Virus record (IMG/VR): IMGVR_UViG_3300031998_000020
DNA: 64,000 nucleotides
Origin: a virus
Lineage: Duplodnaviria; Heunggongvirae; Uroviricota; Caudoviricetes
Reading direction: 5' to 3' (one strand)
The stretch's first letter is position 1. Every line of letters starts with the position of its first letter. Positions 9,123 through 59,963 of the stretch are shown here, one piece after another. The translations under genes and the position numbers were made by a program. The notes under the pieces were generated by a model. It saw only the letters and a list, made by a program, of their open reading frames with translations, did not search any database and was not told the DNA's origin.

Positions 9123-9156
9123 CAAGCAATTTTTGATATTTAAAAATATTTTATTA

Positions 9157-9510: not shown

Positions 9511-9539
9511 TGTAAAATAAAAGGTTGCTTGGCCTTTAC

Positions 9540-9655
9540 GGGCCCTTCGTGTTGGCGGTACTTCGAATAATGGCGTGAATTCAGGTCTCGTGTACTCGAA
9601 TTCGAATAACACCCCCTCGAATACGAATACGAATTATGGCTTTCAGCTAAGTTTT
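9540..9655 (+). repeat. DGR template region (TR)
   Basis: AAY-codon-rich in the VR frame (GTSNNGVNSGLVYSNSNNTPSNTNTNYGFQL); 28 adenines, 20 substituted in VR; lies between accessory gene and RT. Confidence 0.97.
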
Positions 9656-14169: not shown

Positions 14170-14910
14170 ATGTCTAAGAATAAACAAAAAACAGATGACC
14201 AGGTCGAAAAACCTTGGATGAGTATTGTAATCTCGTCAAAAAAAGTTGGCAGTGAGCTTGAAGCTGTCGTAAAGAGATATAGAGACACCATGACATGTAA
14301 GAATGTCAATACGAAGGTTTTCTTGTTTAACAACGATGGCAGTTTAGGGCTAACCAGGTTATATGGTGAATTTCTGAAAAATGAGAGTATACCTGGCAGT
14401 ATAATGATATTTTGTCACGATGACCTCACATTCTTACGTGAGGGCTGGGATGATGAAGTTTATCGATTATTCAAAGATAACCCAGAATATGGGATTATCG
14501 GAGTTGCTGGCTCTGCTGAATTCGATGAAAGGGGTGCATGGTGGATGTACAAGGACATCTACGGTGTAGTTCTGCATCCAAACGGACTTACACGTTTTTC
14601 CCCGTTACTTAAAAAGGACTTGGAGGAAGTGTGTGTTATTGACGGTCTGTTTATGGCAGTGAACAGAGAGAGAATAAGCAAGAATTTCGACCCAGACATA
14701 AAGGGGTTCCATTTTTACGATATCGATTTCTGTCTTGCTAATTATTTGGACGGAAAATCAAAAATCGGTGTTACTACAAATATCAGGATAAAACATGATT
14801 CCGAAGGTAGTTCGGCACTATCGGAGAGTTGGGCAAAGAACAGGCAGCAAGTCGCACTGAAATATAAGGAATTTTTTCCAATTAAAGTGAAGAAGAAAAA
14901 TGGAAAGTAA
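14170..14910 (+). CDS. Glycosyltransferase family 2-like (StrF/Glyco_tranf_2_5 type)
   Basis: FCHDD, YGIIGVAG, VIDGLFMA, FHFYDIDFCL. Confidence 0.8.
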   Translation: MSKNKQKTDDQVEKPWMSIVISSKKVGSELEAVVKRYRDTMTCKNVNTKVFLFNNDGSLGLTRLYGEFLKNESIPGSIMIFCHDDLTFLREGWDDEVYRLFKDNPEYGIIGVAGSAEFDERGAWWMYKDIYGVVLHPNGLTRFSPLLKKDLEEVCVIDGLFMAVNRERISKNFDPDIKGFHFYDIDFCLANYLDGKSKIGVTTNIRIKHDSEGSSALSESWAKNRQQVALKYKEFFPIKVKKKNGK

Positions 14911-18342: not shown

Positions 18343-19164
18343 ATGTTAACAAACAAGAATATTACAGTGATTGTGCCATTGCACAGATACGACAATGATA
18401 TCCCAGATATGCTCGATAACGCATTGAAGAGTGTGCCAAAGGATGTTAAGATTATTATCTCCACAGGTGACAAGTTCGACATCAAGACCTCTGACTTCAA
18501 GACAAGGGTGGTAAAGGACAAGAGAGTTACTTGGGTAGCTAATGCAACAGAAGACACAAGTTTTCAGAACCTTGTGAATCTTGGTGTTGAGGCTGTCAAG
18601 ACAGATTGGTTCAGTATCCTCGAATTCGATGACGTATATACACCTAATTGGTTTGAGAACTTCGAGAAGTACCAGGAATATAACCAGCAATACAACATTT
18701 TCTTCCCAATCGTTGACTTGTATGATACAAGTTCAGAGGAACGTAAGTTTATTGGCTATGGTAACGAGGCACCTTGGGCAGCAGCGTTCTCGGAAACTAT
18801 CGGTGTAATCGACGAAAAGTCACTTGAGAATTTCTTCAATTTCTACCCTACAGGCGGTATCTTTAACAAGAAGGTATGGGTTGAGGTAGGAGGCCTTAAG
18901 ACAAATATCAAGCTCACATTCTGGTATGAATTCATGAGAAGGTTTGTCAGCACGGAAGGTGGAAACATTTATGTTGTACCTAAAATCGGCTATGAGCATG
19001 GTCTCGGCAGGAAGGATTCACTATTGGATATCTACAGGACAACCATTGACAAGACAGAGTCAGATTTCTGGTTCAGGACTGCCAAGAAGGAGTCTTACTT
19101 CAAGGAGATGAGGGAGGTAGCGTATAAGCCTAAGACTAAGGTAGTGGAAGAAGAGAAGAAGTAG
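18343..19164 (+). CDS. Glycosyltransferase family 2
   Basis: ITVIVPLH, NLGVEAVKTDWFSILEFDD (DxD-like), GGIFNKKVW. Confidence 0.8.
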   Translation: MLTNKNITVIVPLHRYDNDIPDMLDNALKSVPKDVKIIISTGDKFDIKTSDFKTRVVKDKRVTWVANATEDTSFQNLVNLGVEAVKTDWFSILEFDDVYTPNWFENFEKYQEYNQQYNIFFPIVDLYDTSSEERKFIGYGNEAPWAAAFSETIGVIDEKSLENFFNFYPTGGIFNKKVWVEVGGLKTNIKLTFWYEFMRRFVSTEGGNIYVVPKIGYEHGLGRKDSLLDIYRTTIDKTESDFWFRTAKKESYFKEMREVAYKPKTKVVEEEKK

Positions 19165-33800: not shown

Positions 33801-36800
33801 AGATGCGCCTTACGAAGAGAGGCAGTGGCATGCCTTTCAGTCAATGGTGCTTACTGATGCCATGAAGAATGCGCTTGACTGGCAGACTACAATTCCTAAC
33901 GCTAATGTTTATCAGCACGATTATATCTGGCAGAGGACGAGGATTGTAACCCCTGCTTACGGTTCACAAACTGCTGATACGAGAACAGAATGGGAATACC
34001 TCAGAGTTTCAGGTGAAAAGGGTAATGTAGGTACAGGAATTCAGCTTAATGGAACTTGCAAAAGCCTTGATGAGCTGTTCAGGCTGGCATATGACAATCC
34101 TCAAGCAGGAACTGGTTATAGGGAGAATAAGATAAGCGGTGGTACTGCCTATACCGTATCAGGAGACTTGTGGGTATGGAACGAGGCGAACGACGATATC
34201 CTTTCAGCAAACACGGATGAACATGGTAGTCACGTTGATTATGGCACCAATATCCCTTGTCACCACTGGCGTAACGGTGGACAGATTAAGGGAGAGGCTT
34301 CACATATCCATATCAAGTACGCTAAAGTAGCATCGGCAGTAACCGAAAGCGTGAGTGGCGTTCAAGTGACAAAATACTATGTGCTTGATAATGACTGGCT
34401 TACAACCAAAATAACCCCTGGTGATGGTGAATTACCAGGTAAGTATATCGGTATTTGCTATAACAACACAGAGGATGACCCAGACCCAATACCTGAAGGT
34501 GGCGGTTTGGTTTCACCGTACTCATGGACTCTATTCCAAGGTGAGGATGGTCTTGATTACGAAATGATATACACTCGTACAAGTGGTAACACTGCCCCTG
34601 CTGTGCCTAATATCACAGGTAATCTCCTAAGTGGTAATACAACAGCAGTAGTTGCTGACGAGGACAGAGGCTTTAATGCCGATGGTTCGCCAAAATACTA
34701 TACGACAAAATATTATTCGGATGCCGATTTTGTGCCTTGTTATAAAAAGAACGATAATAGCAAGACAACAAGGGGTGATAATGGTCAGCCAGTTACAACC
34801 TGTAACTGGACGGATAACCCTATGGGTACCACAGAAGCACTTCCTTACGAATGGGCAGCAAAACGTGATAAGGTTAATGGTATTTGGACTGATTTCTACG
34901 GTAGGGCAGACAAAACAAACGAGTGTGTGTTGTATAACAAGTACGGCAGAAGCTCTATGGAAATCAACATCCCTACTGGCCAATACATCTATTATCCAAT
35001 AGGCAGTGACGGCTATGCTAACCAAGTTGATAAGGTAATTGAGTTTGTTATCTCGAAAGACGGTGAGATACTTAATGCCGATAGGATTGAATTCAGTGAT
35101 GTAAGTATTACTAATGACGGTAATCCTTCAACAAGTGGAATGAGTAATTATTTTAGCACTTATTCAGGCTATACAACAGGTGGTAGCAATGATTGTGCTA
35201 ATCCACATATCCACTTGATTAACAAGAGGTTTAAGCTGAACGACCAATATCAATACAGCTTTACTTGTACATTAACTATTGGTGGACAAGAATATAAGAA
35301 GACATTCTACTTCCAACTGGAGCCTAAAGGTGAAAAGGGTAAGGATGGTGAAAACATCGTTGAATACACCATTGTACCTGACAAAACATCCTTGAAAATG
35401 ACTTCGGCTGGTAGCTTGGATATGGGTACTAATGATGGTATTTCTATTGAGTGTTTTGTCAAAAGTGGTGATACTGTCACGAAGATTGCTTTCGGTAGTA
35501 TTGATGGTAACAAATACGGATTAACGTATAAGGTTGACAGTCTGGAGGAAGCTACTATATATCGTGATTCAAGAACTTCTGGCGGTGATATGTCTAATGG
35601 CTTCATACCGAAAAGCTCAATCCAGAATGTGACCAAACAAGTGACCTTGTATTTGAGAAATAACGGCAATGCTGTTCAGGCAATCACCATACCTACGGTA
35701 TATGATGGTCAGGGTGGAAGTAGAACAAACTTGTTCGGCAAGGAGAATCCTATTAAGTTTAGCGGTGGCAACAAGGTTGTTTCACAAGTCATGCATACGG
35801 ATACAGGATTTGCAGCAATCCTCGAAGTTACCAATATGGCATTCTTAAGTGCCAATATCGGTGATAATCCATTTGAGCCGTGTCTTGTTAGCGGAGATAC
35901 CTACATGCTGAGTTATGAAATCCGATTCAGGAACATAAGTAATTGTACAGCGATTAATTATTTTCCAGAAGACGTTGGCACGGGTCCACAAAGCCAGAGT
36001 CTCACACTTTCTGGGGATGGATTTACGAATTGGGTTAGTGCTTCAAGAAGAATTGATTGGTATAAGCCTGGGGATATAAGCAATGTAAGCGAGTATAATA
36101 GGATAAGGCTAAAAATTGGTTATCTGCAAGGTAGCAACAAGACATGGAAAATTGCAATGGAGGTGAGAAAACTCAAGCTTGAGCATCTACCTAATACTTC
36201 AATGCCAGCAACAGAGTTTGATGGGCTAGCCGTAGGTCACGGCATCCAAAACAACAACATACTACAAGGCAGTGGCGTATTTAAGGCACCTTTTGTAAAA
36301 CCAACCAGTAGCAGTTTAGTGACGAATATCATACCATACGGCTATTGTGGTAATCATGTGTTTACCGTATATGAGAAAAGCAATTCATATAACACTGCTA
36401 TTCTCAAATATACGACCAGAGTTTCTGAGGGTAAATATTATACTGTAAGTTGGTATCAGAAAGCCCAATACTCAGGAAGCACAAGCCCTGGTTATATCAG
36501 ATTCAGCTTAAAGGGTACGGATTGGTCACTATTGCCTGTAACTATGGCTGTTTGCTCAGAAGACGGGCCTGTGTTCAAGACAAATGTTAATAACCAGATT
36601 ATAGAGACTAGCCATGATTTGACAGGAGAATGGAAAAGGCATAGTATGACCTTCTATTCAAGTGGAGATGAAAGTTCGTCTGATGAATTTGAACTCAGGT
36701 GGTATTTCTATGTTAATGGGCATTACACAACTTCCGACAGGTCAACTGCATATATAGCAATGCCTAAACTTGAAGAATCTGACTATCCTACTGGCTGGTG

Positions 36801-38058
36801 CCCAAACGAGGCAGATAGGATAGGTAAGCCTTTAAGAGGCCCAAGAAATTGGGAGGCTGGTGAAGTCTATCAAGGCGGCGGTGTAGAGGATGATTTTCAG
36901 GATATCGTTATGCACTTAAACCAGAATGTCATGTACCTCTGTAAGGTAACACATACTGCAAGTAATGATAACAACCCTTCTAACGGTACTACGACTAACG
37001 GCTGGACCACATCAATGCCTTGGGCTGTGACACAGAAGGTAGCCTTTATTGCTTCAGATGTGATATGGTCTGAAAATTTCAAGTCTCACATGATGGACGT
37101 TGTCCAAGGAAGGGTAGAACAGCTTATCATTAATAAGTTAAATACAGAGAGTACAAACGGTGGAGCTACCATTAAGATTGAAAATGGTGTGATGGAGGCT
37201 TATGGAAGAAACGGTAATAAAAACATAGAAATTGGTGTAGATGACCAAGGTCGAGCCGTTCTGAAATTCTTCGACATCAATGGCAACTACCAGTACAATC
37301 TTGGCCCAGAGGACATTACATCGGAAGTCAAAAAAGCGGCTGCTTATTATAGTTCAATGAACTATGTCAGGATACAGGATAATGGTATTTTCCGAGACGG
37401 GCCTGATGCGCCAATGTGTTTTTATTTCAATGATAATTACAACGATTGGGTATATGCTGGAAGTAATGGCTATCTTATGGTTAATACAACAAAGGTATAT
37501 CAATTCCATGACGGTTACATAGCACAAGGTAATGTAATGAAATTCACGACAAGGTTAAGTATTTCAAGCTCTGGTGATACAGAATTCAACTTAGAGTCAC
37601 ATAGTACTTACCATGAGAGATTCTTCAGTTCGTCAGGAAACACAGGTGCATTAGAACCTTCGACTGGAAATTACTTGGGACCGATAACTAGTGGACAGAA
37701 AAGTTGGGTTGGTATATGTACAGCATCATTCGCACCAATATACCCTAATGTGGGTGCAGGATGGAGTCAAAACAGTAGTTTATTATTCTATGCGAATGGA
37801 ATTGCAGAGTTTACCATGAAACTTTATTTCAACAATTACAATGAAAACAACACCTACGAAAACTCGACTTTACATGCGTGGGCAAAAAACCTAGCAGGGG
37901 AATGGAAACATATTTCCAAGGTTGCTGGAATAAGTGTTGACAGTTGGTCTCAAATAGGAAACAAGACATATCGACAAGTTGCAGCTTGGCAGGACAGTTC
38001 GACATCGTGGGATGCATTTGATTGGGAAGCAGCTAAGAGCTTTAGAAAAAATACATAG
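30823..38058 (+). CDS. Giant modular tail fibre/adhesin (2411 aa)
   Basis: Duplicated Trp-rich modules joined by short collagen-like linkers (KGEDG, GRDG, GEKG); carbohydrate-binding-like modules (MPKLEESDYPTGW); IEIGVDDQGRAVLKF segment. Confidence 0.8.
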   Translation: MANYTQKYTPIQQGMKGIVVANVTNTNFAKIWEELNRLKAENEELKRTAMIGNNGTGGITNDAVVNVMYNPQTIIAKTEYEDCDYYVDVKVMCGQQELKVGTDSPAKFTFEASCDNNISEAGIVANVAIVETDDDRLRLKVTVKPGAISDGSFDFYVKYNNITYNYTVTVVVINSDSGIEYAQGVFMSTIFTRSDGQPERPTGGDFNIPLPTTLSNGLGIMHQGWTDGIPSGTKPLWTSHRKFTNNGKSPQDDTWSEPILAMDSSDFDVCFTSGTTNGDVPQEPLQHGDQDAYEDPSGWHNIGNEFDVWMATSVKNGNEWGPWSIIKVKGEDGSMSDWKDTIYKESSTQPATPTANDPDDFVDNPSAEAPNDGWHDMPNDNGTWWMSCAYVNGDTGKVDEWSIPVMVAGGTGQGVFVSNVFTRSFDKPFQPTGGDYGTPIPDGGDWSDGIPSGNGNAAPVWTSHRTFTSDGMSPQTDTWSEPILMVDTADFDCCFSSYEGIPEAPQRHGDQSSYTDPYGWHNEGTSDDIWMATSSKPANSTQWGNWVITKIKGESGVDGNYTSYIFKSASGTSIDAPTVTIPEYFVDKADNELRYDTGTSIQPGDDAYERNRGWKDGPGIDYENDGLTWWMSCGVIDGSTGRVMQDGWSKPIPMDGRDGASTEYRYGINDSEVDPPRMDQIDDDTVWSDTVAGALHNQSVKDGVTPDYATVPSNHYMWMAMRRSILVEGVLTPQSWEYCRVTGEKGESGTQLKVKDTKESYEELFLIAVNSNNTPRATLPEDGDTYVVNKDMWVWSDAAEWVHADNTTRSKYNTNLDPAKWKNCGPIVGPSGATTYFHVKYAKALTLSAETENHEIIWYPNEAFNSADGCRYLGTRVDIQKEALDGPQYYSGYTWGQFTGEDGYGYEYIYRLSDTNPAQFTVPTKEQCTPYNGKNFDDNDYVPSGWTDNPTGISTLYPYEFMASRIRENGVWQPFKGQPSSNVTPILHSYRGKDAPYEERQWHAFQSMVLTDAMKNALDWQTTIPNANVYQHDYIWQRTRIVTPAYGSQTADTRTEWEYLRVSGEKGNVGTGIQLNGTCKSLDELFRLAYDNPQAGTGYRENKISGGTAYTVSGDLWVWNEANDDILSANTDEHGSHVDYGTNIPCHHWRNGGQIKGEASHIHIKYAKVASAVTESVSGVQVTKYYVLDNDWLTTKITPGDGELPGKYIGICYNNTEDDPDPIPEGGGLVSPYSWTLFQGEDGLDYEMIYTRTSGNTAPAVPNITGNLLSGNTTAVVADEDRGFNADGSPKYYTTKYYSDADFVPCYKKNDNSKTTRGDNGQPVTTCNWTDNPMGTTEALPYEWAAKRDKVNGIWTDFYGRADKTNECVLYNKYGRSSMEINIPTGQYIYYPIGSDGYANQVDKVIEFVISKDGEILNADRIEFSDVSITNDGNPSTSGMSNYFSTYSGYTTGGSNDCANPHIHLINKRFKLNDQYQYSFTCTLTIGGQEYKKTFYFQLEPKGEKGKDGENIVEYTIVPDKTSLKMTSAGSLDMGTNDGISIECFVKSGDTVTKIAFGSIDGNKYGLTYKVDSLEEATIYRDSRTSGGDMSNGFIPKSSIQNVTKQVTLYLRNNGNAVQAITIPTVYDGQGGSRTNLFGKENPIKFSGGNKVVSQVMHTDTGFAAILEVTNMAFLSANIGDNPFEPCLVSGDTYMLSYEIRFRNISNCTAINYFPEDVGTGPQSQSLTLSGDGFTNWVSASRRIDWYKPGDISNVSEYNRIRLKIGYLQGSNKTWKIAMEVRKLKLEHLPNTSMPATEFDGLAVGHGIQNNNILQGSGVFKAPFVKPTSSSLVTNIIPYGYCGNHVFTVYEKSNSYNTAILKYTTRVSEGKYYTVSWYQKAQYSGSTSPGYIRFSLKGTDWSLLPVTMAVCSEDGPVFKTNVNNQIIETSHDLTGEWKRHSMTFYSSGDESSSDEFELRWYFYVNGHYTTSDRSTAYIAMPKLEESDYPTGWCPNEADRIGKPLRGPRNWEAGEVYQGGGVEDDFQDIVMHLNQNVMYLCKVTHTASNDNNPSNGTTTNGWTTSMPWAVTQKVAFIASDVIWSENFKSHMMDVVQGRVEQLIINKLNTESTNGGATIKIENGVMEAYGRNGNKNIEIGVDDQGRAVLKFFDINGNYQYNLGPEDITSEVKKAAAYYSSMNYVRIQDNGIFRDGPDAPMCFYFNDNYNDWVYAGSNGYLMVNTTKVYQFHDGYIAQGNVMKFTTRLSISSSGDTEFNLESHSTYHERFFSSSGNTGALEPSTGNYLGPITSGQKSWVGICTASFAPIYPNVGAGWSQNSSLLFYANGIAEFTMKLYFNNYNENNTYENSTLHAWAKNLAGEWKHISKVAGISVDSWSQIGNKTYRQVAAWQDSSTSWDAFDWEAAKSFRKNT

Positions 38059-46139: not shown

Positions 46140-47207
46140 GTGAATAACGTAGACGAACAATATCTCAACACATTAAGGGAGGTTCTTAATTACGGGTATT
46201 ACAAGGATACCAGGAGTGGTGAAGTGTATTCCCGATTTGGTATGTCAATGAGATTCAACCTTCAAGAAGGTTTCCCTGTACTTACCACTAAGAAGATGTT
46301 TACAAGGGGATTCATCCACGAACTCTTATGGTTTTTGAAGGGTGATACCAATATCAAATACCTTGTTGATAACAACGTAAATTTCTGGACTCCAGATGCT
46401 TACAGATTCTTCAATGAACTTGTTAACAAAAATGACAGCATACTTGAAGTAGAGACACCTCGGATAACCCAGGAAGAATTCGTTGAAAGCGTGAAAAGTC
46501 AGAGGAAGATGAAGCTGGCTGTCAAGATTAACGAGAATGGTAATCCCGTCTATAAGTATTACACTTTTGGCGATATGGGTGACATCTATGGTAAGCAATG
46601 GAGGCATTGGGGTAATAGGGATTTCGACCAAATCAGAATGATTATCAATACCCTCAAGAAGAATCCGAATGACAGAAGACTTCTGTTGACTGGTTACAAT
46701 CCAGAGATAATAAAGGAAATAGCACTTCCACCTTGCCATACACTCTATCAGTTCTATGCAAGACCATTAAATAAGATGGAAAGGCTTGATTGGTGTCAGA
46801 AGCACATTGAAGGCACAGAAGAATGGGTTTACCCGACAGACGAAAAAATGGACGAATTGAATGTGCCAAAGTATGCACTTAGCCTCTGGTTCTCATGTCG
46901 TTCACAGGATTTGCCTCTTGGAACACCTGCCAATATCATGTCAGCCAGCCTGTTGGTGTCAATGATTGCACAGTGTGTGAATATGGTGCCAGAGGAAGTA
47001 ATATGGAATGGCGGTGACTGCCATATCTACCACAATCAGATTGACGGTGTCAGAGAACAGCTAACAAGGGACCCTCACAAGTACAACCTCCCTACGTTAT
47101 GGCTAAATCCAGATATCAAGAATATCGATGACTTCACAATAGATGATATCCGAATTGAGGGGTATCAATCTTATGATGCGATTAAAATGCCACTTAGCGT
47201 GGGATAA
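46140..47207 (+). CDS. thyA: Thymidylate synthase ThyA
   Basis: [29 protein letters not shown] (catalytic Cys), RSQD...[12 protein letters not shown]. Confidence 0.95.
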
Positions 47208-47212
47208 ATGTT

Positions 47213-49696
47213 ATGGAGAACAAGCAAGAAACTCACATGCCATATTCCCAAGAACTTGAGGATGTCATGGCATACATGTTTAAGGTCATTGTTGTGGATT
47301 TCAACTTAAAGACTTGTACACCACATGCTCTTTTGTTATCCATGATAGAGGAAAGCGATTGTAACGCTGCTACAATCATGCAGAAATACGCAATGTCCAC
47401 AAACATAATGAAGCTCACGAAGAATCTGGCCCAAACCATTGACTTGACAAACAATGGTTATCATGACAATGGCGCACAATTTGACGATGAGCTGGTTAAT
47501 GTGCTTGCCCAGGCAGAAATTGAGGCAAGGAGGCTTAAATCCCCTGAAATAGGCACACAGCATGTGTTATTAGCACTACTCCATGAGGGTGTGTGCTTCC
47601 CTTGTGGAGAAGAGTTGAGAAAGTATATCAATTACGATATGGTGTTAAGCACCTACAATAACTTACCAAATAAGAGTAAAATGTCAAAAAAACTTCCTAA
47701 GAGGAACCTCACAAACCTTCCGATTCAGTTAAAATCGGCTATCAACCCAGAAATTATCTATTTCGAGAGTTCAACAGAATATCTCGACAAGTACACGACA
47801 AACATCAATGAAATGGTAATGGATGGGAAATGCGAGAACTTGGTCAACAGGCCTAAATTGATGAGTAAAATCATACAGGTCTTGTCAAGAAGAAAGAAGA
47901 ACAATGTCGTACTTGTTGGCAACGGCGGTGTCGGCTCAACATCCCTCGTCCATCTTCTTGCATCACTCATTAATAATGACGAGGTTCCATCCGTACTCAA
48001 AGGCAAGACTATCTACATGCTTGATTCTGTGGCCTTGGTTAGCGGAACCTCACTGAAAGGTATGTTCGAGGAACGAGTTAATGGCCTTTTCAAAGAATTG
48101 ACAGCCAATGAAAACAACATCCTCTTTATCGATAACATGCAGACTGTTGTAAGAAACACAGGTAGAGATAAAGACGGTGACTTAACTGATATCCTCGGTC
48201 CTATTCTGACAGACGGTAAGGTAAGGGTGATTGGCACAATGTCGTTCAAAGACTACCGCAATGGTATAGAGAATGCCCCTGTCCTATCCCATAAGCTACA
48301 GAAAATAGTAGTGGAATCAACGACAGATGAAGAGACATTTGAGATTCTAAAGAATAATAGGAGCCTTTACGAGAAGTATCACCATGTATTATTCTCAGAC
48401 GATTGCCTCCGTAGGATTATCAAGCTCTCAAAGAGGTATATTACAAACAACAACCTTCCAGATTCAGCCATCGACGTAATGGATATTACTGGAGCAAGGA
48501 TGTCAAGAGGTGAGGACACGGCTTTAAGTAAAAGCAAGAAAGACCTCAAAAACATCAATAAGAGGAAAGCAAATGCAGTTGTGCATGGACAGTTTGAGAA
48601 GCTGGACATCTTGAGCAAGAAAGAGTCAAAAATCCTCAAGACAATAGATGAACTTAACCGTAGGTTCGAGAATGACAATAGTTCATGGTACAGTGTCAAT
48701 GAAGAGGATATTGATGACACAGTAGCATCAATGACCGACATTCCAATTGCAAAATTAAAGGCAAGTGACAGGAAGTCTATTCTTAATATTGGAAATATAC
48801 TCAAGCAAGACGTAATCGGCCAAGACGAGGCTATTGAAGAGATTGCCAAGGCTATTAAGCGTAATCGGGCAGGATTCAATGACAAAAACAAGGTTTATGC
48901 TACCTTTATGCTGATTTCACAGACGGGCTGCGGTAAGACCTTGCTTGCAAAGAAACTTGCAGAAAACATCTTCGGAAGTGAGAAAATGCTTGTTAGGTTC
49001 GATATGTCTGAGTACCAAGACAAGACAGCAGTCAATAAGCTTATCGGAAGCTCGGCTGGCTATGTGGGCTATGAGAATGGCGGTTTGCTCACAGAAGCTA
49101 TCAAGAACAAGCCACATTGTGTGCTTCTATTCGACGAGATAGAGAAAGCCGACGAGAGTATCTACAATCTGTTCCTCCAATTGTTTGATGAGGGTAGATT
49201 GACCGATAATAACGGTACTCTGGTAAACTTCAAGAATGTCATTGTAATCATGACATCAAATGTGGGTGCAAAGCAAGTTGCAGAGCTTGGAAAGAATATC
49301 GGTTTCAACGATAATTCAGCACAAAAGCAGAAAAGCATCTTCGACACGTCACTCAAGAGCAAGTTCAACCCTGAGTTCTTGAACAGAATTGACAAGATTA
49401 TCTACCTTAATCCTCTGGATGACAGCAATCTGAAAGCGATTAGCAAAATCGAATTAGATAAGATTGTTGAACGAGTAAAGGAAGAACATGTCAATATTCA
49501 GTATGATGAGTCTGTTGTTGATTTCATCTATAAGAAGGCTGTTGAGCAAAAGGAGTACGGCGCACGACCAATCATGAGAATTATTCAAGATAATATCTCT
49601 GATAAACTCTCAGATTACGTTCTCTGTTCTGAATCTAAAGATGTGACATTCGATGTAACCGTTCAAAATGAGGAAGTTAGGGTTTCTGTAAAGTAA
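47213..49696 (+). CDS. ClpC/ClpA-like AAA+ chaperone with degenerate first nucleotide-binding domain
   Basis: Clp-N repeats (IGTQHVLLALL), NBD1 GNGGVGST/FIDNM, coiled-coil middle region, NBD2 TGCGKT/LFDEIEKA, IGF loop, PEFLNRID, YGARP. Confidence 0.9.
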   Translation: MENKQETHMPYSQELEDVMAYMFKVIVVDFNLKTCTPHALLLSMIEESDCNAATIMQKYAMSTNIMKLTKNLAQTIDLTNNGYHDNGAQFDDELVNVLAQAEIEARRLKSPEIGTQHVLLALLHEGVCFPCGEELRKYINYDMVLSTYNNLPNKSKMSKKLPKRNLTNLPIQLKSAINPEIIYFESSTEYLDKYTTNINEMVMDGKCENLVNRPKLMSKIIQVLSRRKKNNVVLVGNGGVGSTSLVHLLASLINNDEVPSVLKGKTIYMLDSVALVSGTSLKGMFEERVNGLFKELTANENNILFIDNMQTVVRNTGRDKDGDLTDILGPILTDGKVRVIGTMSFKDYRNGIENAPVLSHKLQKIVVESTTDEETFEILKNNRSLYEKYHHVLFSDDCLRRIIKLSKRYITNNNLPDSAIDVMDITGARMSRGEDTALSKSKKDLKNINKRKANAVVHGQFEKLDILSKKESKILKTIDELNRRFENDNSSWYSVNEEDIDDTVASMTDIPIAKLKASDRKSILNIGNILKQDVIGQDEAIEEIAKAIKRNRAGFNDKNKVYATFMLISQTGCGKTLLAKKLAENIFGSEKMLVRFDMSEYQDKTAVNKLIGSSAGYVGYENGGLLTEAIKNKPHCVLLFDEIEKADESIYNLFLQLFDEGRLTDNNGTLVNFKNVIVIMTSNVGAKQVAELGKNIGFNDNSAQKQKSIFDTSLKSKFNPEFLNRIDKIIYLNPLDDSNLKAISKIELDKIVERVKEEHVNIQYDESVVDFIYKKAVEQKEYGARPIMRIIQDNISDKLSDYVLCSESKDVTFDVTVQNEEVRVSVK

Positions 49697-50817: not shown

Positions 50818-51510
50818 ATGAAATATAGTATTCTAAAATTAAAAATTGAATTTGGTGGGACTGAGAAAGTCTTCACTGACCCAGTAGAGGATTATGTAAT
50901 TAGCTTTATCCACAAGGTTCTGGGTAAAAACAACAAATGGCACAGTGGATTTTCCGACTATAGTGTTTCGACACTACTCGGTGGTACTGCTAAAGATGGG
51001 GGCATGAGTTTTACAGATGGTGCCTATGTTTATGTATCTTCAACTAATGAGGATTTCATAAACACACTAACGGTTAACTTGGTCAAGAAGCAGGACGAAC
51101 TTTATCTTCGAGACATGAAGGTGACAAACTTTTCATTTCCGATGAGCACGGTCCATTCAGACTACGACCTTATCCGAACAAACAGCCCATTGCTATTGAA
51201 GGTCAAGGATGACAGGATTGTCACCTATCAAGATGAAGACTTCATTGACCTACTGACCAGTCAGTCACGCAAGAAGTTGTCACATCTCAATTGTTTCAGT
51301 GAGGATGAAATCGACAGCCTTAAAATTGAGCCATTCCATTTCGAGGGCGCATCTGTCAGATATGCAAAACGCAAGAATTTCTCTCTTCCAACCTCAATGG
51401 TAAAACTCATAGTAAAAGGAAAGGCAACATGCAGAAAGGCCCTTTACGAGATGGGGCTTGGAAATTCAACAGGATATTGCTTTGGCGCAGTAGAAATTTT
51501 AAGTAAGTAA
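50818..51510 (+). CDS. cas6: CRISPR-associated endoribonuclease Cas6
   Basis: IHKVLGKNNKWH...DYSVS, TNSPLLL, C-terminal Gly-rich loop GLGNSTGYCFG; first gene of the locus. Confidence 0.88.
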   Translation: MKYSILKLKIEFGGTEKVFTDPVEDYVISFIHKVLGKNNKWHSGFSDYSVSTLLGGTAKDGGMSFTDGAYVYVSSTNEDFINTLTVNLVKKQDELYLRDMKVTNFSFPMSTVHSDYDLIRTNSPLLLKVKDDRIVTYQDEDFIDLLTSQSRKKLSHLNCFSEDEIDSLKIEPFHFEGASVRYAKRKNFSLPTSMVKLIVKGKATCRKALYEMGLGNSTGYCFGAVEILSK

Positions 51511-51537
51511 GTAAATATAATTTATAAAGTTTTTATT

Positions 51538-52620
51538 ATGAAAAATTTATTGTTTAGAGTGGCCCTTAAGGGCAATGGCGTTGTTAATTTCGATGACAAC
51601 AAGCAGAAGAAGATGTTAGGTTTACATTGTGGTATGGACATTAGCTGGTCTTATAAGTACTACAACTTGAGTAAGAAGTCTTTCCGCAAGAAGGAAGGTG
51701 ATGACAAGGCTACCTACAACCTGAAAATCTCATCAACATGCCTTCGTCACGCATTGTTTGAGGACGATTACAAGGCAACCAATCCAACAATTTCTAAGGT
51801 TGACGTGTGTATGGCAGATTTCATTTCATCAGTTCCAGGTCTGTTGAGGGGATATATGTTCACTACACGAGGTTCAGGCAAGGGTGAGAATGCAGCGAAG
51901 GGTGACAAGGGCGAATGCTTTGTACTCAAGAGTCCTATTACTCTGACCAATGCAGAAGAGTGTACAGGAGCCATCCCTTACCTTGAGCTTAATTCCCCAA
52001 GCGGATACAAGCCTTCTAAGGAGAACGATGCAGACAAGAGTAGTACCAGTCTCTACTACACAGAGAATGTTGGTGACGTAATGTACAAGGCAAAGGGTGT
52101 AATTGACATCAAGTCGATGCAATTCCTGTCAGATGACCTACTCTTTGGACGTGTAGCGTTTAAGGACCAATGGCTTGAGGGTGACAGATTGCTGGACAAG
52201 GTATTTATGAACCATTACGGACGAATCCCTTACACAGAAGGCTTCTTCACCTCGACTAAGAATGTATTCGGTGAGCGTATTGCTGAGCATGGCGTAAAGT
52301 TCGACGATGAGTTTATCCGCTTCCTTGTTTGTGAAGCACTCAAGAGATTGCGCAAGATGAGTATCAAACGTGCAGGTGCTTATGCAGAGGTAACTTCTCT
52401 CCAGATTAAGATGGTCGACGATGGTACTTTTGACAACTTCGAGTCTGAGGACGGTTGGATGGAGGTGACTCCACAGTTGATTGAGAAGCTTTCCAAGGAG
52501 CTTGAAATCGATAACTTCTATGTCGAAGCCTCTGATACGCTCGTTAAGAAGACACGAGAGGAAATCGAAAAGGAGCTTCAAAAAGAGCGTGCTAAGGACA
52601 AGGCCAAGCAGAATGCTTAA
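51538..52620 (+). CDS. cas7: Cas7 backbone subunit (type I-B/DevR-like)
   Basis: N-terminal strand + N, KISSTCLRHALF, LRGYM, KSPITLTNA, SLYYTE...Y...IDI pattern of Cas7; CRISPR context. Confidence 0.8.
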   Translation: MKNLLFRVALKGNGVVNFDDNKQKKMLGLHCGMDISWSYKYYNLSKKSFRKKEGDDKATYNLKISSTCLRHALFEDDYKATNPTISKVDVCMADFISSVPGLLRGYMFTTRGSGKGENAAKGDKGECFVLKSPITLTNAEECTGAIPYLELNSPSGYKPSKENDADKSSTSLYYTENVGDVMYKAKGVIDIKSMQFLSDDLLFGRVAFKDQWLEGDRLLDKVFMNHYGRIPYTEGFFTSTKNVFGERIAEHGVKFDDEFIRFLVCEALKRLRKMSIKRAGAYAEVTSLQIKMVDDGTFDNFESEDGWMEVTPQLIEKLSKELEIDNFYVEASDTLVKKTREEIEKELQKERAKDKAKQNA

Positions 52621-52642
52621 AATAATGTAAATCAGAATAACT

Positions 52643-53560
52643 ATGACACATTATCTCATATTAAAGTTTGAGAATGCAGGACTGGTTTATGGAAGAAGTA
52701 AGCACTTTGTCAGAAGTACTTATGGGAATGTAGGAAATATAGAAGTGAGTGAGGGTCATGATTGTGTGACCCCCATTCCCTACACCCTACTTAGTAACAT
52801 ACTTCACAAGATGTGCGGTGAGATTCCAGTCCCCTCAAAGAGGCCAACCATATTCCACAGGAGTAAAGTGTTGGACGATATAGCCAAAAAGAGCTATGTC
52901 AAATACAATATCAAGCCTATTGCCAACGACAAGGGTTACGGATATGACAACACAGAAGTGTTTGTTACTGCAAAGTATGCTTATAATGCCCACCAAAAAG
53001 TCGACACGAAATTCACCCTACATGATGGTCGTGTAATTGAACGTGTAGGTAGGTATAACTGGTCATATTTGGAGAAGGCTTGTGATAGCAAAGCCAATTT
53101 CGATATTGTTTGTAACTTCTTGTCAGACATTATCGGTGAGGATTGTAGAAAATACACCATGAAGGAGTTTATCACGAAACTGTCAGAATATTGGGATAGC
53201 GAAGACTTCAAGGCAAAGTTTACTCAGTTCCTGACAGAAAACAAGTTCCTATCTAATGCATGGGTCAATTTGTTCACTAACAAATCATCATCGGGTAGTA
53301 ATACGAGTTACACATCAAAAACTCCATTACTCTACACAAGTGGTGTGTCAGATATTATATATCTTGATGGACAAATCGTGTGCCCGATTGATAACGAAGA
53401 CGTTATCCAGGCATTACATGATAACGGAGGTACGGCAACCATCCTTGAGCATGGTCTGGTTTACATCAAAAAGATTGTAACAAACCCCAACATGATAAAT
53501 CTGGAAGATGGTTACGAGAAAATCTTCGACGAGAATCAAGCACAAGCGATTGACAATTAA
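52643..53560 (+). CDS. cas5: Cas5-like RAMP, enlarged (305 aa) by a helical insertion
   Basis: YLILKFENAG first strand, TPIPYTLLSNILHKMCG helix, C-terminal GGTATILEHGLVYI loop; follows cas7. Confidence 0.65.
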   Translation: MTHYLILKFENAGLVYGRSKHFVRSTYGNVGNIEVSEGHDCVTPIPYTLLSNILHKMCGEIPVPSKRPTIFHRSKVLDDIAKKSYVKYNIKPIANDKGYGYDNTEVFVTAKYAYNAHQKVDTKFTLHDGRVIERVGRYNWSYLEKACDSKANFDIVCNFLSDIIGEDCRKYTMKEFITKLSEYWDSEDFKAKFTQFLTENKFLSNAWVNLFTNKSSSGSNTSYTSKTPLLYTSGVSDIIYLDGQIVCPIDNEDVIQALHDNGGTATILEHGLVYIKKIVTNPNMINLEDGYEKIFDENQAQAIDN

Positions 53561-53577
53561 GGTGTTATGGGCTATAG

Positions 53578-54461
53578 GTTGTTAGTCATATAGATACGTA
53601 AGGTAATCACAACGACAAACTGAATATGTCATCTGCTCACTTGTTGTTAGTCATATAGATACGTAAGGTAATCACAACCGTTCTTGATACCGTATTTTTT
53701 TCTTCTGGTTGTTAGTCATATAGATACGTAAGGTAATCACAACTAAAACATATCATTTGGAATCTGTATGATGCTGTTAGTCATATAGATACGTAAGGTA
53801 ATCACAACACACAGGCTCAGAATCTGGCAATCCAAGAGCTGTTAGTCATATAGATACGTAAGGTAATCACAACGACCAGTTAGCAGTTACTCCAAAGGCT
53901 CAGGCTGTTAGTCATATAGATACGTAAGGTAATCACAACGCCTGGGCGTTTCAATACACTCCCATCATGTTGTTAGTCATATAAATACGTAAGGTAATCA
54001 CAACTTCCACTTCTGGACAGCCGACACTTATCAGGTTGTTAGTCATATATATACGTCAGGTAATCACAACCCTGTGTTCCAACCTGCTTACTAAGAGACG
54101 TTGTTAGTCATATAGATACGTAAGGTAATCACAACGTTGGCGTATTTCCTGCCCTGGCAAGTCAGTTGTTAGTCATATAGATACGTAAGGTAATCACAAC
54201 GATGTGTGCCAGGATTACATTGCCCATGCAGTTGTTAGTCATATAGATACGTAAGGTAATCACAACTATATGTTCACTTGATTATGAATTCCTTTGTTGT
54301 TAGCCATATAGATACGTAAGGTAATCACAATACGTTTGAAGAGGCTCTTTGTGAAACCTAGTTGTTACTCATATATATACGTCAGGTAATCACAAAAGTG
54401 GTATTGGAGCCTTAGAACAAGCATTGCGTTTAACCATATAGATATGTAAGGTAATCAAAAT
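53578..54461 (+). CRISPR. CRISPR array: 14 repeats of 36 nt, 13 spacers of 29-30 nt
   Basis: Consensus GTTGTTAGTCATATAGATACGTAAGGTAATCACAAC; repeats start at 53578, 53643, 53708, 53773, 53838, 53904, 53969, 54035, 54100, 54165, 54231, 54296, 54361, 54426 (last degenerate). A further remnant lies at about 54489-54520. Confidence 0.99.
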
Positions 54462-54538
54462 AGAAAACAAGGCATAGTAATTGCTTTAATTGTTATATTT
54501 TTACGTAAGGTAATTTTTATTTTTTAAATTATTAATGC

Positions 54539-56974
54539 ATGAAAAATAATAGTAACAAAATTGCCAGTTTTTTAGGCAAAAGTGATGTTAATACATTAAA
54601 TCACTACTTGATTAATCATACTAAAATGGTTCTTAACCTTGGTATGAGATTGGCAGATAACGAAAAGGCATGTGGTTATCGAGAAACTATATGCAATGGG
54701 AAGGACGAGTTTATGAAGAAACTGGCCCTGACATTAGTATTGCATGATATTGGCAAAATTGTCAAGGATTTTCAGAGGTATCTGAGCAAGAAGAAGACAA
54801 AGGCAAAACTGCCTCATAAAGTTTATTCATGGGCATACGTATCCAAGCGAGTAAAAGGCATCAATACCGATAAAAGGGTATGTATCAAATCTGCTATACT
54901 CTATCATCATGCCAGTTATCACAAATATGACACGTCATCCAACACCATTCTGAACCAGATGAGTAATGAGGATTTGGCCAACATGGATGCTTTTTATCAG
55001 GAAATGTCAGATTATTGCGTTAAGACTTTTGGCGAGAAGTTCAATCTGACAAAAATGTTCCCAATTATTGAAGATAGTGATGAATACGGTCAGTCTGAAA
55101 CTATAGAGAAGGTTCCTCTATACCACGAGATAGAGTTCAATAATGACTACGAGAAGACTATGGATGCCTTTGAAATAGATTCAATGGCTCAGTTGATACG
55201 TGCAATTCTCATTAGGGTAGACAGATTGGTATCTGGAATTCGCAATCAGGATGAGTTACAGAAGATACTTGACAATGACATTGAGTTCATGGATAAGCAT
55301 TATTGCCAATTGTCAGAGGTAGAGTTCAAGGATTCCATTGAGTGTGTGGATACAAAAAAGTTTTTTATGAATAATGCCTCTAAGTATGATGTTGGGAGAT
55401 TGCAAGACCAATTCAGTATTCTTGACCTGACCAAGGAATTCAATCATAATGCTATCAAGGCATGTGCAGGTTTCGGTAAGACACTTTTGGGTTTAATGTG
55501 GTTTTTGAGGGAAAAGAAATCATTATTATGGGTTACATCCAAAAATACTATCGTATCGAACACCTATAATTCTATCAAGAAAGAGTTGATGACATTAGGA
55601 TTGTATGACAAGGTGCGTATTTGCTCGTATTTTGAAGGTAATGTCATAGACACTAACTGTCCAGAAATCAGTGAGGATGATATTGACAAATATGATATCC
55701 TTGTGACTAACATAGATAGTATAGTGAACCGTACAGCCAAGAATAGTAAGGCACACCTTATGTTCAATATGTATGAGTCACATGTGATTTTTGACGAATA
55801 CCATGAATTTAAGTCAAAGGAGGCCATATTCTCTGCGTTCATCAGATTGATGTACATAAGAATTCATCATACCAATGCCAAAACTCTTTTAATGAGTGCA
55901 ACAGCCTCTGATTTCAGCTATTTGTGGTGTAACGGAGTCAATATGATTAATGACACCGAGGTTTTGTATGGTAATGAAACAAACATAAAAGTCTTCTATC
56001 ATGCATATTGTAAGGATGAAAAAGTTAATCTTCCGTCAGGTGATGTTTTAGCTATTTGTCAAACAGTGCAACAAGCATGTGATTTGTATGAAACGAATAA
56101 GAATCATGATGATGCAACGCTAATTCATGCAAGGTTTACGAAGGCCGACAAAACTGCTAAATACGAGAAGATTATGTCAACTCATGGTGACGGTAAGTCA
56201 GACCTTTCAAAAAGAGGTCTGGTAATCGGTACAAGCATTATCGGTACTGGACTTGACATGAGCAGTAAGATTCTTTATGACGTGGCTACATCACCAGAGT
56301 CAACGATACAGAGGGCTTGTGGCAGATGTTCACGTTTCGGTGAATACAAAGACATTGAGTATCATGTTTGTGACATTATCGACGATAGCAAGACTATTGT
56401 CAAGCAAGACTATACATTACGACTAAATGAGTTGTGGTTGGCTAAGTTGAAAGAGTTAAACAATAAGACAATCACCAAAACAAGGCTCTATGAGTTGTAT
56501 GAAGAGTTCCAAAAGGAACATGAGTCGTTAATCAAGAAACATTATGCCGATTTCTTCAATACCAGTTCTAAGAAACTGGGGGCGATTAGGCCATACGGCA
56601 CATTGCGGAAAGATGATAAAGACGATGATGCAGAATACGTTGGAAAGAAAGGCTATAGAGGTGATAATGATAGTGTCTACGTCACTGCAAAAGACCCGAC
56701 AAATGGTAACAATTGGTCAAATGTAATTCTGGTTAACCTGTCACATCTCTCAAAGGAAGAGAAGAATTCACGCCCAAGGAAAAATTTCCTGGGAGACCCA
56801 CCAAAGCCATTTAATTACGGGGATGTGCTACGCTGGAAGACACTTTCCAGTTATTCAGCCGAAGAATGTCAACAATTTGCTTTTTGCAGCAAAAGTCCTA
56901 TACCATTGTTTGATTATATCTACGACTCTGAACTGGGCTTGAGATGTATTCATGGCAATGATGATAACGAATAA
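54539..56974 (+). CDS. cas3: Cas3 HD nuclease-helicase
   Basis: HD domain (NHT, LHDIGK, YHH, RVDRLVS) plus SF2 motifs CAGFGKT, IFDEYH, MSAT, IHARF, TGLD, QRACGRCSR. Confidence 0.95.
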   Translation: MKNNSNKIASFLGKSDVNTLNHYLINHTKMVLNLGMRLADNEKACGYRETICNGKDEFMKKLALTLVLHDIGKIVKDFQRYLSKKKTKAKLPHKVYSWAYVSKRVKGINTDKRVCIKSAILYHHASYHKYDTSSNTILNQMSNEDLANMDAFYQEMSDYCVKTFGEKFNLTKMFPIIEDSDEYGQSETIEKVPLYHEIEFNNDYEKTMDAFEIDSMAQLIRAILIRVDRLVSGIRNQDELQKILDNDIEFMDKHYCQLSEVEFKDSIECVDTKKFFMNNASKYDVGRLQDQFSILDLTKEFNHNAIKACAGFGKTLLGLMWFLREKKSLLWVTSKNTIVSNTYNSIKKELMTLGLYDKVRICSYFEGNVIDTNCPEISEDDIDKYDILVTNIDSIVNRTAKNSKAHLMFNMYESHVIFDEYHEFKSKEAIFSAFIRLMYIRIHHTNAKTLLMSATASDFSYLWCNGVNMINDTEVLYGNETNIKVFYHAYCKDEKVNLPSGDVLAICQTVQQACDLYETNKNHDDATLIHARFTKADKTAKYEKIMSTHGDGKSDLSKRGLVIGTSIIGTGLDMSSKILYDVATSPESTIQRACGRCSRFGEYKDIEYHVCDIIDDSKTIVKQDYTLRLNELWLAKLKELNNKTITKTRLYELYEEFQKEHESLIKKHYADFFNTSSKKLGAIRPYGTLRKDDKDDDAEYVGKKGYRGDNDSVYVTAKDPTNGNNWSNVILVNLSHLSKEEKNSRPRKNFLGDPPKPFNYGDVLRWKTLSSYSAEECQQFAFCSKSPIPLFDYIYDSELGLRCIHGNDDNE

Positions 56975-57328: not shown

Positions 57329-57425
57329 GTTTTTAAGTATTTGTTAGTAATAAATATCAAAAAAAACTTTCTTATGTAAAAAAAAATCAGTATCTTTGCA
57401 ATATAATTGTTTAAATATCACAATA

Positions 57426-58184
57426 ATGTCTAAAGAAAATTTCCCTAAAGAAAAAATGATATCAAGATTTGGAGCTTCCTTGGAATACAATGAGGTCACA
57501 ATTCTTGGTGAGGTAAAGGATATATTAGCAGAATATCCTTCACGTGTTATTGCTGAATTCACAGGTTTGGATGAGAACTATATTGACAGGATTCGAGCCA
57601 GGAGAGAGAAATTAAGCAACATAACTCTTGGAGATTTCTGTAAAATCAAGTCCATGAAGGCTGTTCCCGATTGGTATTGTCCAGAAATGTATAAGGACAA
57701 GGAATACGGGCCAGAGGTAAAAGAGGAAGACATAAAGCCAAGTACCAAGGAAACGCCAGAAGAGAATTGTGAGCAACCAAGGAATGATAAGGCAGTAAAC
57801 GGCAATACAGGTATTTTGGATGTTGCCAAAGTATATGCAGATGCAGCAGAAGAAGCCAAAATCAAGCTTTTCGGTAGAAAAATGCTGCCAAGTAGCATGA
57901 CTTTCGAAGAAATGAAGGAATGCCTGAAAGAAAACGGCTGGACAGATGAGTTCGACTTCGACGATGATGAAAAGAGTGACAGTATGAGACTGAGGGTTTT
58001 CCTATATAGAAAGCTGACTGAACTGACAAAGGAAATATACCAGGCAAGGAAGAATAAGCAAGAGAAAAAGGATACCCAGCCAAAACACAAGGACCAAAGT
58101 GACTATAAGAGCGAGTTAGCTGGTATACAGGAGCTTTTTGACAATCTGTTCGGTAAAGGAAACGTGTTTTTCAGTAAATTTTAA
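57426..58184 (+). CDS. Hypothetical protein with possible N-terminal HTH
   Basis: SRVIAEFTGLDENYIDRIRARREKLSNITLG is XRE-HTH-like; TATCTTTG at 57391; ATG 57426. Confidence 0.55.
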   Translation: MSKENFPKEKMISRFGASLEYNEVTILGEVKDILAEYPSRVIAEFTGLDENYIDRIRARREKLSNITLGDFCKIKSMKAVPDWYCPEMYKDKEYGPEVKEEDIKPSTKETPEENCEQPRNDKAVNGNTGILDVAKVYADAAEEAKIKLFGRKMLPSSMTFEEMKECLKENGWTDEFDFDDDEKSDSMRLRVFLYRKLTELTKEIYQARKNKQEKKDTQPKHKDQSDYKSELAGIQELFDNLFGKGNVFFSKF

Positions 58185-58187
58185 GTA

Positions 58188-59963
58188 ATGGAATATATCC
58201 CTTCCAAATATCAATTAGCGATATTTGATTTCGTCGAGAAAGACCACGGGAATGCTGTCATAGAGGCCGTGCCAGGGGCAGGTAAGACATACACCCTGAT
58301 ACAATGCCTCAAGCATATTCCCAAGAACGCCAAGGTATTGGTTGCTGCCTTCAACACAGACATCATAGGTGAGCTAAAAGGAAAGATAGCCAAACTGGAA
58401 GACAAGCCCAATATAGACTGTAGGACACTACACTCTCTGGGTTTGTCTATCCTTGTTTCCAACTATTACGACAAGATAGATACAACCCCATCCGACTATA
58501 AGTATAGCAATTATATAACAGCGTATCTTTCTGATTACAAGGAGGATGAGTACACACAGCTTTCCAAGAAAGAGAAGAAAGCATATGCTGAGAATATCAA
58601 GACATTTGTTGATTTCGGCAGGTACTACCTCTGTAAGACCGAAAAAGACCTCCAGAAGGTCCAAGACCAGTATTCCTTCGATTGCATCGGCAATGAGAAG
58701 AAAATAGCCCTAGAGGTCATGAAATGGGGCAAGGAGCATATAGAAATCATTGACTTCACTGATATGGTCTGGCTTCCTATAGTGCTCAACTGCAAGCCAT
58801 ACAACCATCTATATGACTGGATATTGGTGGATGAGGCACAGGACCTTGAGAAAGAGGAAAGGGTGCTGATTGAACTGTGTACCAAGATGCAAACCAGGAG
58901 GTTATTCTTCGGTGAAAAGAAACAGACCATCAACATATTCAAAGGTACTGACAACAAGACGTTTACGTCATTACAGGAAATACCCAATACCATTAAAATG
59001 CCTTTGTCCATTACATATAGGTGCCCAAAATCTGTTGTGCGTTTTCTTCATCGTTACAATCCACAGGTACAGGCAGCACCAAATGCTATTGAAGGTGTAG
59101 TAAAGTGGCATTGTGACATTAATGAGATTGAGGATGGGTCAATGGTGCTTTGCAGGGCTAATGCTCCGTTAATGGAGTTGTATGCCCAACTGTCTGACCT
59201 CGGCAAGACTGCCTTTATCAGAGGCAAAGACATAGGCAAGAATCTCATAAGCCTGATTGAGAACACACACGAAGAGAATCTGAACAAAGACCTGAAAGAT
59301 AAGGGTGTGTTTTCTGCTTTGTATGACCAGTTAATCAGCACTATTGACGAGGTGATGAGGAAGAATAGGATATCAGAGGAAATGGCAATAGAGGACTTGA
59401 ATGTGGCTCAGTTTTACGACAAGATAATGGCTCTTGAAGCCATCGTGGGAAATTGTACTACAGCCAAGGAAATGACCGACAAGATAGAGTCTCTTTTCTC
59501 AGATGAGGAAAAGACAGGTATCACATTGTCTACCGTACACAAAGCCAAAGGACTCGAAGCTGACAATGTGTATATATGCTGTCCGTCACTCTTACCTTCC
59601 AAGAATGCCAAATTGCCTTGGGAAATTGAATCAGAGGAAAATCTGTGCTATGTGGCATATTCAAGGCCTAAGAAGAAACTGTGTTTTCTCAATGAGGACA
59701 ACATGTCGAAATACTCCATGACATCACAGCAGAAGTTGAATGCCTTACAGCTAATCAAGGTTAAGATATTCTATTTGTATGGGGATGCAATAAGGTGTTC
59801 TGGAATCACACCAACTTTTGAGACTGCAAAAGTGATTATTGAGCATTCCACCAAGATTGAAGAGCTTAAGGAGAATGTTAAAACAGTTAACAATGTGGTA
59901 AATAACAGTTCTTTTTCATCATTCAAGAACTTTGGTTTGTCAAAAAAGAAGAAAAAATGTTAA
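58188..59963 (+). CDS. UvrD/Rep-like SF1 helicase
   Basis: AVPGAGKT, TLHSLG, LVDEAQD, LSITYRCP, LSTVHKAKGLE, YVAYSR. Confidence 0.9.
   Translation: MEYIPSKYQLAIFDFVEKDHGNAVIEAVPGAGKTYTLIQCLKHIPKNAKVLVAAFNTDIIGELKGKIAKLEDKPNIDCRTLHSLGLSILVSNYYDKIDTTPSDYKYSNYITAYLSDYKEDEYTQLSKKEKKAYAENIKTFVDFGRYYLCKTEKDLQKVQDQYSFDCIGNEKKIALEVMKWGKEHIEIIDFTDMVWLPIVLNCKPYNHLYDWILVDEAQDLEKEERVLIELCTKMQTRRLFFGEKKQTINIFKGTDNKTFTSLQEIPNTIKMPLSITYRCPKSVVRFLHRYNPQVQAAPNAIEGVVKWHCDINEIEDGSMVLCRANAPLMELYAQLSDLGKTAFIRGKDIGKNLISLIENTHEENLNKDLKDKGVFSALYDQLISTIDEVMRKNRISEEMAIEDLNVAQFYDKIMALEAIVGNCTTAKEMTDKIESLFSDEEKTGITLSTVHKAKGLEADNVYICCPSLLPSKNAKLPWEIESEENLCYVAYSRPKKKLCFLNEDNMSKYSMTSQQKLNALQLIKVKIFYLYGDAIRCSGITPTFETAKVIIEHSTKIEELKENVKTVNNVVNNSSFSSFKNFGLSKKKKKC

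Follow-up and report, generated by a model that had tools for sequence, protein, structure and literature searches.

A candidate phage-borne Cascade without a large subunit, with a compact helical domain inside Cas5

A 64,000-nucleotide stretch of virus DNA (IMG/VR record IMGVR_UViG_3300031998_000020, Caudoviricetes; hereafter the window) contains a type I CRISPR operon in which the gene at 52643-53560, plus strand, encodes a Cas5 protein. The locus raises a question: how could a Cascade complex recognise its DNA target if the operon encodes neither the large subunit Cas8 nor the small subunit Cas11? The explanation that we favour, at a probability of roughly 60%, is that this protein (P0001) is the Cas5 of a minimal phage-borne Cas6/Cas7/Cas5 Cascade, a divergent relative of type I-F2, in which a helical domain of Cas5 does the job of the large subunit. 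The comparison system is Cas5fv (Cas5f2) from the type I-F2 (I-Fv) Cascade of Shewanella putrefaciens CN-32 (PDB 5O6U, 5O7H, 9G44; Pfam PF20158).

The operon has the order cas6, cas7, cas5, 14-repeat array, cas3, with the following features.

50818..51510, plus strand: cas6 (230 amino acids), generic or I-B-type endoribonuclease, not Cas6f (PF01881, 1.2e-12; TIGR01877, 5e-16, above cut-off; PADLOC Cas6b, 6.5e-28)
51538..52620, plus strand: cas7 (360 amino acids), Cas7fv-homologous backbone subunit (NF040577; PADLOC Cas7fv; PDB Cas7fv chains)
52643..53560, plus strand: cas5 (305 amino acids), ATG start, identified by its fold
52643..53047, plus strand: N-terminal RRM-palm half of Cas5 and beta-hairpin region, residues 1-135 (AlphaFold2 secondary structure)
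53048..53290, plus strand: five-helix inserted domain of Cas5, residues 136-216
53348..53482, plus strand: C-terminal beta-alpha-beta unit of Cas5 and glycine-rich loop, residues 236-280 (AlphaFold2 model)
53578..54461, plus strand: CRISPR array, 14 repeats of 36 nucleotides and 13 spacers of 29-30 nucleotides
54539..56974, plus strand: cas3 (811 amino acids), HD nuclease and superfamily 2 helicase, no Cas2 fusion (Pfam, NCBIfam, PADLOC)

The gaps between cas6, cas7 and cas5, at 22-28 nucleotides, are too short for a large or small subunit gene. Indeed, no cas8 or cas11 gene was found at the window locus or in more than ten related loci, in agreement with an earlier reading made from the DNA letters alone (the sequence-only reading), which had suggested that a helical insertion in Cas5 may replace the large subunit. 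No cas1, cas2 or cas4 was observed among the open reading frames (ORFs) scanned around the locus, and neither cas1 nor cas2 was found in the relatives. Cas3 matches the Pfam families Cas3_HD, HD, DEAD, Helicase_C and Cas3-like_C_2 and the NCBIfam models cas3_core and cas3_HD.

The Cas5 protein has the 305 residues given in the sequence-only reading, and all peptides quoted there are present: YLILKFENAG at residues 4-13, TPIPYTLLSNILH at 43-55, WSYLEKAC at 140-147, FLSDIIG at 159-165, FITKLSEYW at 176-184, AWVNLF at 206-211 and GGTATILEHGLVYI at 262-275. In an AlphaFold2 model based on an alignment of 14 homologous sequences (mean pLDDT, the predicted local distance difference test score, of 77), the N-terminal beta-alpha-beta unit (beta1 at 3-16, alpha1 at 47-57) precedes additional strands that extend to residue 135. 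The compact domain at approximately 136-216 consists of five helices (140-212) with pLDDT of 88-94. Residues 213-235 are a disordered linker rich in serine and threonine, and residues 236-279 form the C-terminal beta-alpha-beta unit that terminates in the glycine-rich GGTATILEHGLVYI motif. The RRM palm halves enclose the helices, as had been proposed in terms of RAMP-type ends flanking a helical insertion; the insertion is somewhat larger than was then estimated, being about 73-81 residues long rather than 65-70.

A Foldseek search of the model against PDB ranked first chain 5o6u_F, Cas5fv of the Shewanella I-Fv Cascade (E-value 1.5e-4, probability 0.99), and second chain 9g44_B, Cas5 of the 2026 I-F2 structure (E-value 1e-3). 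All remaining matches were other RAMP proteins with E-values of at least 0.06. Cas5fv was the first match with two methods. The modelled fold is firmly that of Cas5 and weakly Cas5fv-like; on the first point the sequence-only reading was right. Membership in the Cas5 superfamily is seen from the ferredoxin/RRM-like palm, from the C-terminal glycine-rich loop, and from the position of the gene, which lies beside cas7 in an operon of class 1 effector genes that includes a CRISPR array, both in the window and in related loci (L002-L015). Comparison of the protein with Pfam, NCBIfam, PADLOC, PHROGs and PDB sequences yielded nothing meaningful, and a fold search of the BFVD viral structures retrieved one uncharacterised phage protein (E-value 0.013).

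When 1.84 billion cluster representatives (clusters at 50% identity) were searched exhaustively with HMMER, 256 family members were found at E-values of at most 1e-3, 95 of them at 1e-10 or below. Most members are 270-340 residues long, and most full-length matches cover the greater part of the query. Judging from these sequences, the gene is real and under selection. None of the source records of ten members carries a functional name, and a profile of 113 members gave only noise against PDB sequences. No match was found to the protein in INPHARED phages (tblastn), and an alignment of the close subfamily retrieved no relatives from IMG/VR. In a protein-language-model search of the ESM Atlas, the nearest clusters were Cas5p/PGING proteins of Bacteroidota (cosine 0.83-0.84, below the threshold of 0.9), which we treat as a lead only.

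The helical block occurs in all 113 aligned homologues, with a length of 73-102 residues. Since no member without the domain was found among them, it is a fixed feature of the family and not a recent insertion. The glycines G243 and G271 are invariant in this alignment. The mean column entropy is 2.96 bits in the helical block and 2.2-2.4 bits in the RRM core, and the conserved positions of the domain are largely hydrophobic, with an additional near-invariant tryptophan W140 at its start. Such variability of the surface is what a specificity module would show. The beta-hairpin at approximately 118-135 is present in Cas5 of the window subfamily and missing from the distant phage subfamily.

Two other components of the operon, Cas7 and Cas3, point to type I-F2. 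The only NCBIfam model matching Cas7 is NF040577, Cas7fv (9.2e-25), and the score of 87.6 bits is below the equivalog cut-off of 200 bits; by sequence comparison, Cas7 is thus a relative of Cas7fv and not a member by the NCBI threshold. The only PADLOC matches are Cas7fv (1.9e-16) and Cas7f (6.7e-12), the PDB sequence matches are Cas7fv chains 5o6u_C and 9g44_F (3-4e-10), and a tblastn search retrieves genes annotated as cas7fv from Acinetobacter plasmids (1e-10). No I-B Cas7 model of NCBIfam or PADLOC matched. The best PADLOC profile for Cas3 is Cas3fv (4.2e-48), aligned from profile position 137 onwards, so that the Cas2 part is missing from the window protein.

The module is conserved in other loci. 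In a metagenome contig of the Joint Genome Institute (L002), whose Cas5 is 41% identical, the order is cas6-cas7-cas5-mini-array-cas3-array; in a 9.8-kb contig from a metagenome-assembled genome of Bacteroidia (L003) it is cas7-cas5-cas6-array. In twelve IMG/VR viral contigs with a more distant subfamily, the order is cas3-cas7-cas5-cas6-array as far as the contig extends. The latter is the I-F2 order (cas2-3, cas7fv, cas5fv, cas6f) without cas1 and the Cas2 fusion; a true I-Fv locus from an Acinetobacter plasmid (L001), taken for reference, has the I-F2 order with cas6f. The gene order is permuted between the window (50818-56974) and L002, with cas6-cas7-cas5-array-cas3, and loci L004-L014, with cas3-cas7-cas5-cas6-array at positions of about 4600-9600. 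In the relatives, Cas7 is again Cas7fv-like and Cas6 is again Cas6b-like, and neither an additional conserved ORF nor room for a further subunit was found there. Given this synteny and the Cas7fv-like Cas7, the module is a conserved, mostly phage-borne type I system lacking Cas8 and Cas11, and the order in the window is a permutation. The fetched loci are mostly large phage contigs (those in IMG/VR include 124, 310, 340 and 362 kb), and the probable host phylum is Bacteroidota, as a Bacteroidia contig carries the module.

The repeat 3' end ...GTAAGGTAATCACAAC is retained in the arrays of L002 and L003. The arrays of these distant members, where Cas5 identity is 30-40%, share with the window the repeat 3' end GTAAGG(T/G)A(A/T)T(C/T)ACAA(C/T) (window 53578-54461; L002 3119-3284 and 5799-6163; L003 3035-3603). 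In L002 the two arrays lie on either side of cas3 and their repeats differ slightly.

Cas7, Cas3, the order of the genes in the relatives and the top fold match of Cas5 all point to shared ancestry of the system with I-F/I-F2. The sequence-only reading had suggested convergent evolution in an I-B-like lineage. This is not supported as worded: Cas7 is a Cas7fv homologue, Cas3 fits Cas3fv, the relatives have the I-F2 order and Cas5fv is the top fold match of Cas5. The I-B-like features are limited to the Cas6b-like Cas6 and the 36-nucleotide repeats, and there is neither Cas8b nor a Cas7 of the I-B type (Csh2/Cst2 families). At the same time, this is not type I-F2 as defined. The Cascade genes encode only Cas5, Cas7 and Cas6, with no Cas8 or Cas11, as in I-F2 of S. 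putrefaciens CN-32. However, four features that define I-F2 are absent, as there is no Cas5fv of the PF20158 type, no Cas6f with 28-nucleotide repeats, and no Cas2-Cas3 fusion with Cas1f. Instead, the system has a Cas6b-like Cas6 in place of Cas6f, a stand-alone Cas3 of about 750-810 residues in place of Cas2-3 and no Cas1, and it is carried by phages. I-F repeats are typically 28 nucleotides long, whereas those described here have 36. From these comparisons, the phage system is a distinct variant related to I-F2 rather than a convergent derivative of I-B.

In I-F2, which works without Cas8, the alpha-helical (AH) domain of Cas5fv recognises the GG protospacer-adjacent motif (PAM) through the major groove and acts as a wedge in the duplex, loops of Cas7 stand in for Cas11, and Cas3 is docked jointly by Cas7 and Cas5 (PMC6546366; PMC12956352). 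As Cas7 is homologous and the set of subunits is the same, the most parsimonious model for the phage system is that its subunits share the work as those of I-F2 do. By analogy, Cas5 would cap a Cascade made of Cas6, Cas7 and Cas5 only and bind the 5' handle of the CRISPR RNA (crRNA), and the retained repeat 3' end is consistent with this. The conserved helical domain probably does the large subunit's job. It would most likely reach into the space of that subunit, clamp the PAM-proximal duplex, read the PAM and aid strand splitting; both its placement in the complex and its PAM-reading and wedge function are deduced from Cas5fv. Guiding of the non-target strand and docking of Cas3 would fall to Cas7, as they do in I-F2, and the complex would work with the stand-alone Cas3. 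The lineage may have taken up a generic Cas6 with 36-nucleotide repeats and dropped Cas1 and the Cas2 fusion.

The difficulty lies in the helical domain itself, and several observations weigh against this model. Cas5 of the window resembles Cas5fv in that an additional domain made only of helices separates the N- and C-terminal halves of its RRM palm. However, the AH domain has six helices (PMC6546366) and, being flanked by Q113 and K253, about 140 residues (PMC12956352), whereas the phage domain, with five helices and about 80 residues, is approximately half that size. BLASTP showed no significant similarity between the family and Cas5fv. The hhalign comparison of the 113-sequence family with Cas5fv gave a probability of 0.7%; the Cas5fv alignment is shallow, consisting of an Acinetobacter plasmid gene and its homologues (16 sequences, 66-100% identity, all PF20158), and this limits sensitivity. 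The protein does not match PF20158. The isolated helical domain has no profile similarity to Cas5fv (hhalign, below 1%), and the fold comparison proposed in the sequence-only reading found no match of the insert to Cas5fv, Cas8 or Cas11. The missing fold match would decide little by itself, but direct comparison with the family models was negative as well. Against NCBIfam, the 113 members gave one irrelevant match and none to a CRISPR-associated model. Taken together, these comparisons show no sequence link to Cas5fv. By Z scores alone, Cas5fv is equal with Cas5e-type chains as a match of the protein. The net charge of the domain is about zero, while the N-terminal core of Cas5 is basic (family median +7); a neutral domain is not obviously DNA-binding, which is a mild point against a simple DNA clamp. 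Finally, no PAM could be derived, as no protospacer was found: the whole array had no match in the phage collection, comparison of the spacers with all fetched loci gave only chance matches of 11-15 nucleotides, and two spacers searched as exact 25-mers had no match in IMG/VR.

One possibility is that the helical domain and the AH domain are unrelated by descent, and that a lineage lacking Cas8 gained its own helical domain, which came to perform the task of the AH domain by convergence. The size difference and the lack of fold or profile likeness would be explained, as would the beta-hairpin elements that precede the helical domain and the Cas6 and repeats of another type. On the other hand, common descent with I-F2 is indicated by Cas7 and Cas3, by the order of the genes and by the fold that Cas5 matches best. 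The findings on Cas7 and Cas3 also contradict the I-B-like lineage in which such a gain was originally placed. Moreover, the insertion has the same gross position, between the palm halves. This follows from the ranges of the structural alignment with Cas5fv (residues 3-280 of the model and 1-336 of the chain, about 126 aligned residues; these are ranges and not a residue map) and from the hhalign pairing of residues 233-279 with Cas5fv 280-336, the C-terminal beta-alpha-beta unit, which was the only region paired and is not significant. Small helical domains diverge past recognition fast, and we regard a separate gain as possible but rather doubtful. Another explanation is that the domain is a built-in small subunit or brace that stabilises the R-loop or the non-target strand, or a module for docking Cas3, with the PAM read by palm loops of Cas5 or by Cas7, or with relaxed PAM stringency. 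Cas11 and the C-terminal domains of Cas8 are likewise small helical bundles, and the contrast between the neutral domain and the basic core would fit. The I-F2 Cas5 also touches Cas3 (PMC12956352). However, the domain matches no Cas11 or Cas8 chain structurally, the small-subunit role in I-F2 is held by loops of Cas7, whose homologue is present here, and the high variability of the surface would be expected of a role in specificity more than of a constant interface between proteins; we consider this explanation unlikely. It seems least credible of all that the module is not autonomous and borrows the large subunit of the host, or serves only in crRNA sequestration or regulation, the helical domain then having no large-subunit role. 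Many phage CRISPR loci are incomplete (PMC7162821), and with no adaptation genes found at the locus, spacer gain depends on something in trans; but the module is always accompanied by an intact Cas3 with HD and helicase domains, the same three-subunit set suffices in I-F2 (PMC12956352), and the family is retained across at least 256 clusters.

Among other known systems, the canonical Cas5 proteins of types I-E, I-B, I-A and I-C (5U07_N, 4TVX_H, 8FCJ_A, 7R21_P) differ from the phage protein in being about 200-250 residues long, having no helical domain and working with Cas8, in some cases also with Cas11. Cas5p of type I-PGING (Pfam PF27788) has Bacteroidota in common, as the probable phage host phylum; however, PGING has Cas8, and there is no hidden Markov model support for a link to Cas5p. 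The incomplete type I systems of huge phages (PMC7162821) are similar in residing in large phage genomes and lacking Cas1, Cas2 and Cas4. The variant described there is I-C-like, without Cas6, with a Cas5d-like Cas5 and with another helicase replacing Cas3 (Al-Shayeb et al. 2020, PMC7162821), and thus has a different architecture from the system in the window.

That a helical domain of Cas5 can substitute for Cas8 is already known. The apparent novelty is the lineage, which is phage-borne, diverse and unannotated, and whose helical module cannot be recognised from its structure. The literature that could be searched, among it the huge-phage survey and the 2025 classification update, yielded no description of this architecture; subscription papers were outside the search, and it may have been described earlier. 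Tentatively, the module may represent an undescribed subtype-level type I lineage without Cas8 and Cas11, widespread in large phages, probably of Bacteroidota, whose Cas5 has a new compact PAM-reading helical module with no detectable relative in PDB. If this tentative reading is true, the module would be a second structural solution to DNA targeting without a large subunit. To our knowledge, no Cascade other than that of type I-F2 has yet been studied that functions without the large and small subunits, and I-F2 is under development as the most compact type I scaffold for editing. A second lineage, highly diverse and mostly phage-borne, with a three-subunit make-up and a half-sized helical module in Cas5, would mean that Cas8-less targeting is not a one-off, and would offer natural variation for PAM reading in Cas5 and new compact Cascades. 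It is relevant, too, to the way in which phages may conduct CRISPR interference with a minimum of genes, none of them for adaptation.

The window as a whole is phage-like, with genes for a tail protein (7561-8988; phrog_5302, 9e-108), thymidylate synthase, a ClpA/B-like ATPase and PhoH. Near the tail protein gene lies a reverse transcriptase gene of the phage type (9753-10814; phrog_1423, 9e-117); together they could be a diversity-generating retroelement. Directly 3' of cas3, at 57396-59963, there are a 262-residue ORF without a family match and a 591-residue superfamily 1 helicase similar to UvrD and GajB (PADLOC GajB, 6e-31). They are not retained beside the cas genes of the relatives and thus probably form a separate module, possibly of defence or counter-defence. 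The region 46140-49696 encodes thymidylate synthase (355 residues) followed by the ClpA/ClpB-like double AAA+ ATPase (827 residues), an unusual phage cargo. The model matches to the former are broken into two or three segments, suggesting that about 40-90 residues are inserted. One ORF at 30823-38058, plus strand, encodes 2411 residues. A cluster of glycosyltransferase genes was observed in the upstream phage region at 10873-12102, 14170-14910 and 18343-19164 (phrog_7162, PF13712, PF00535).
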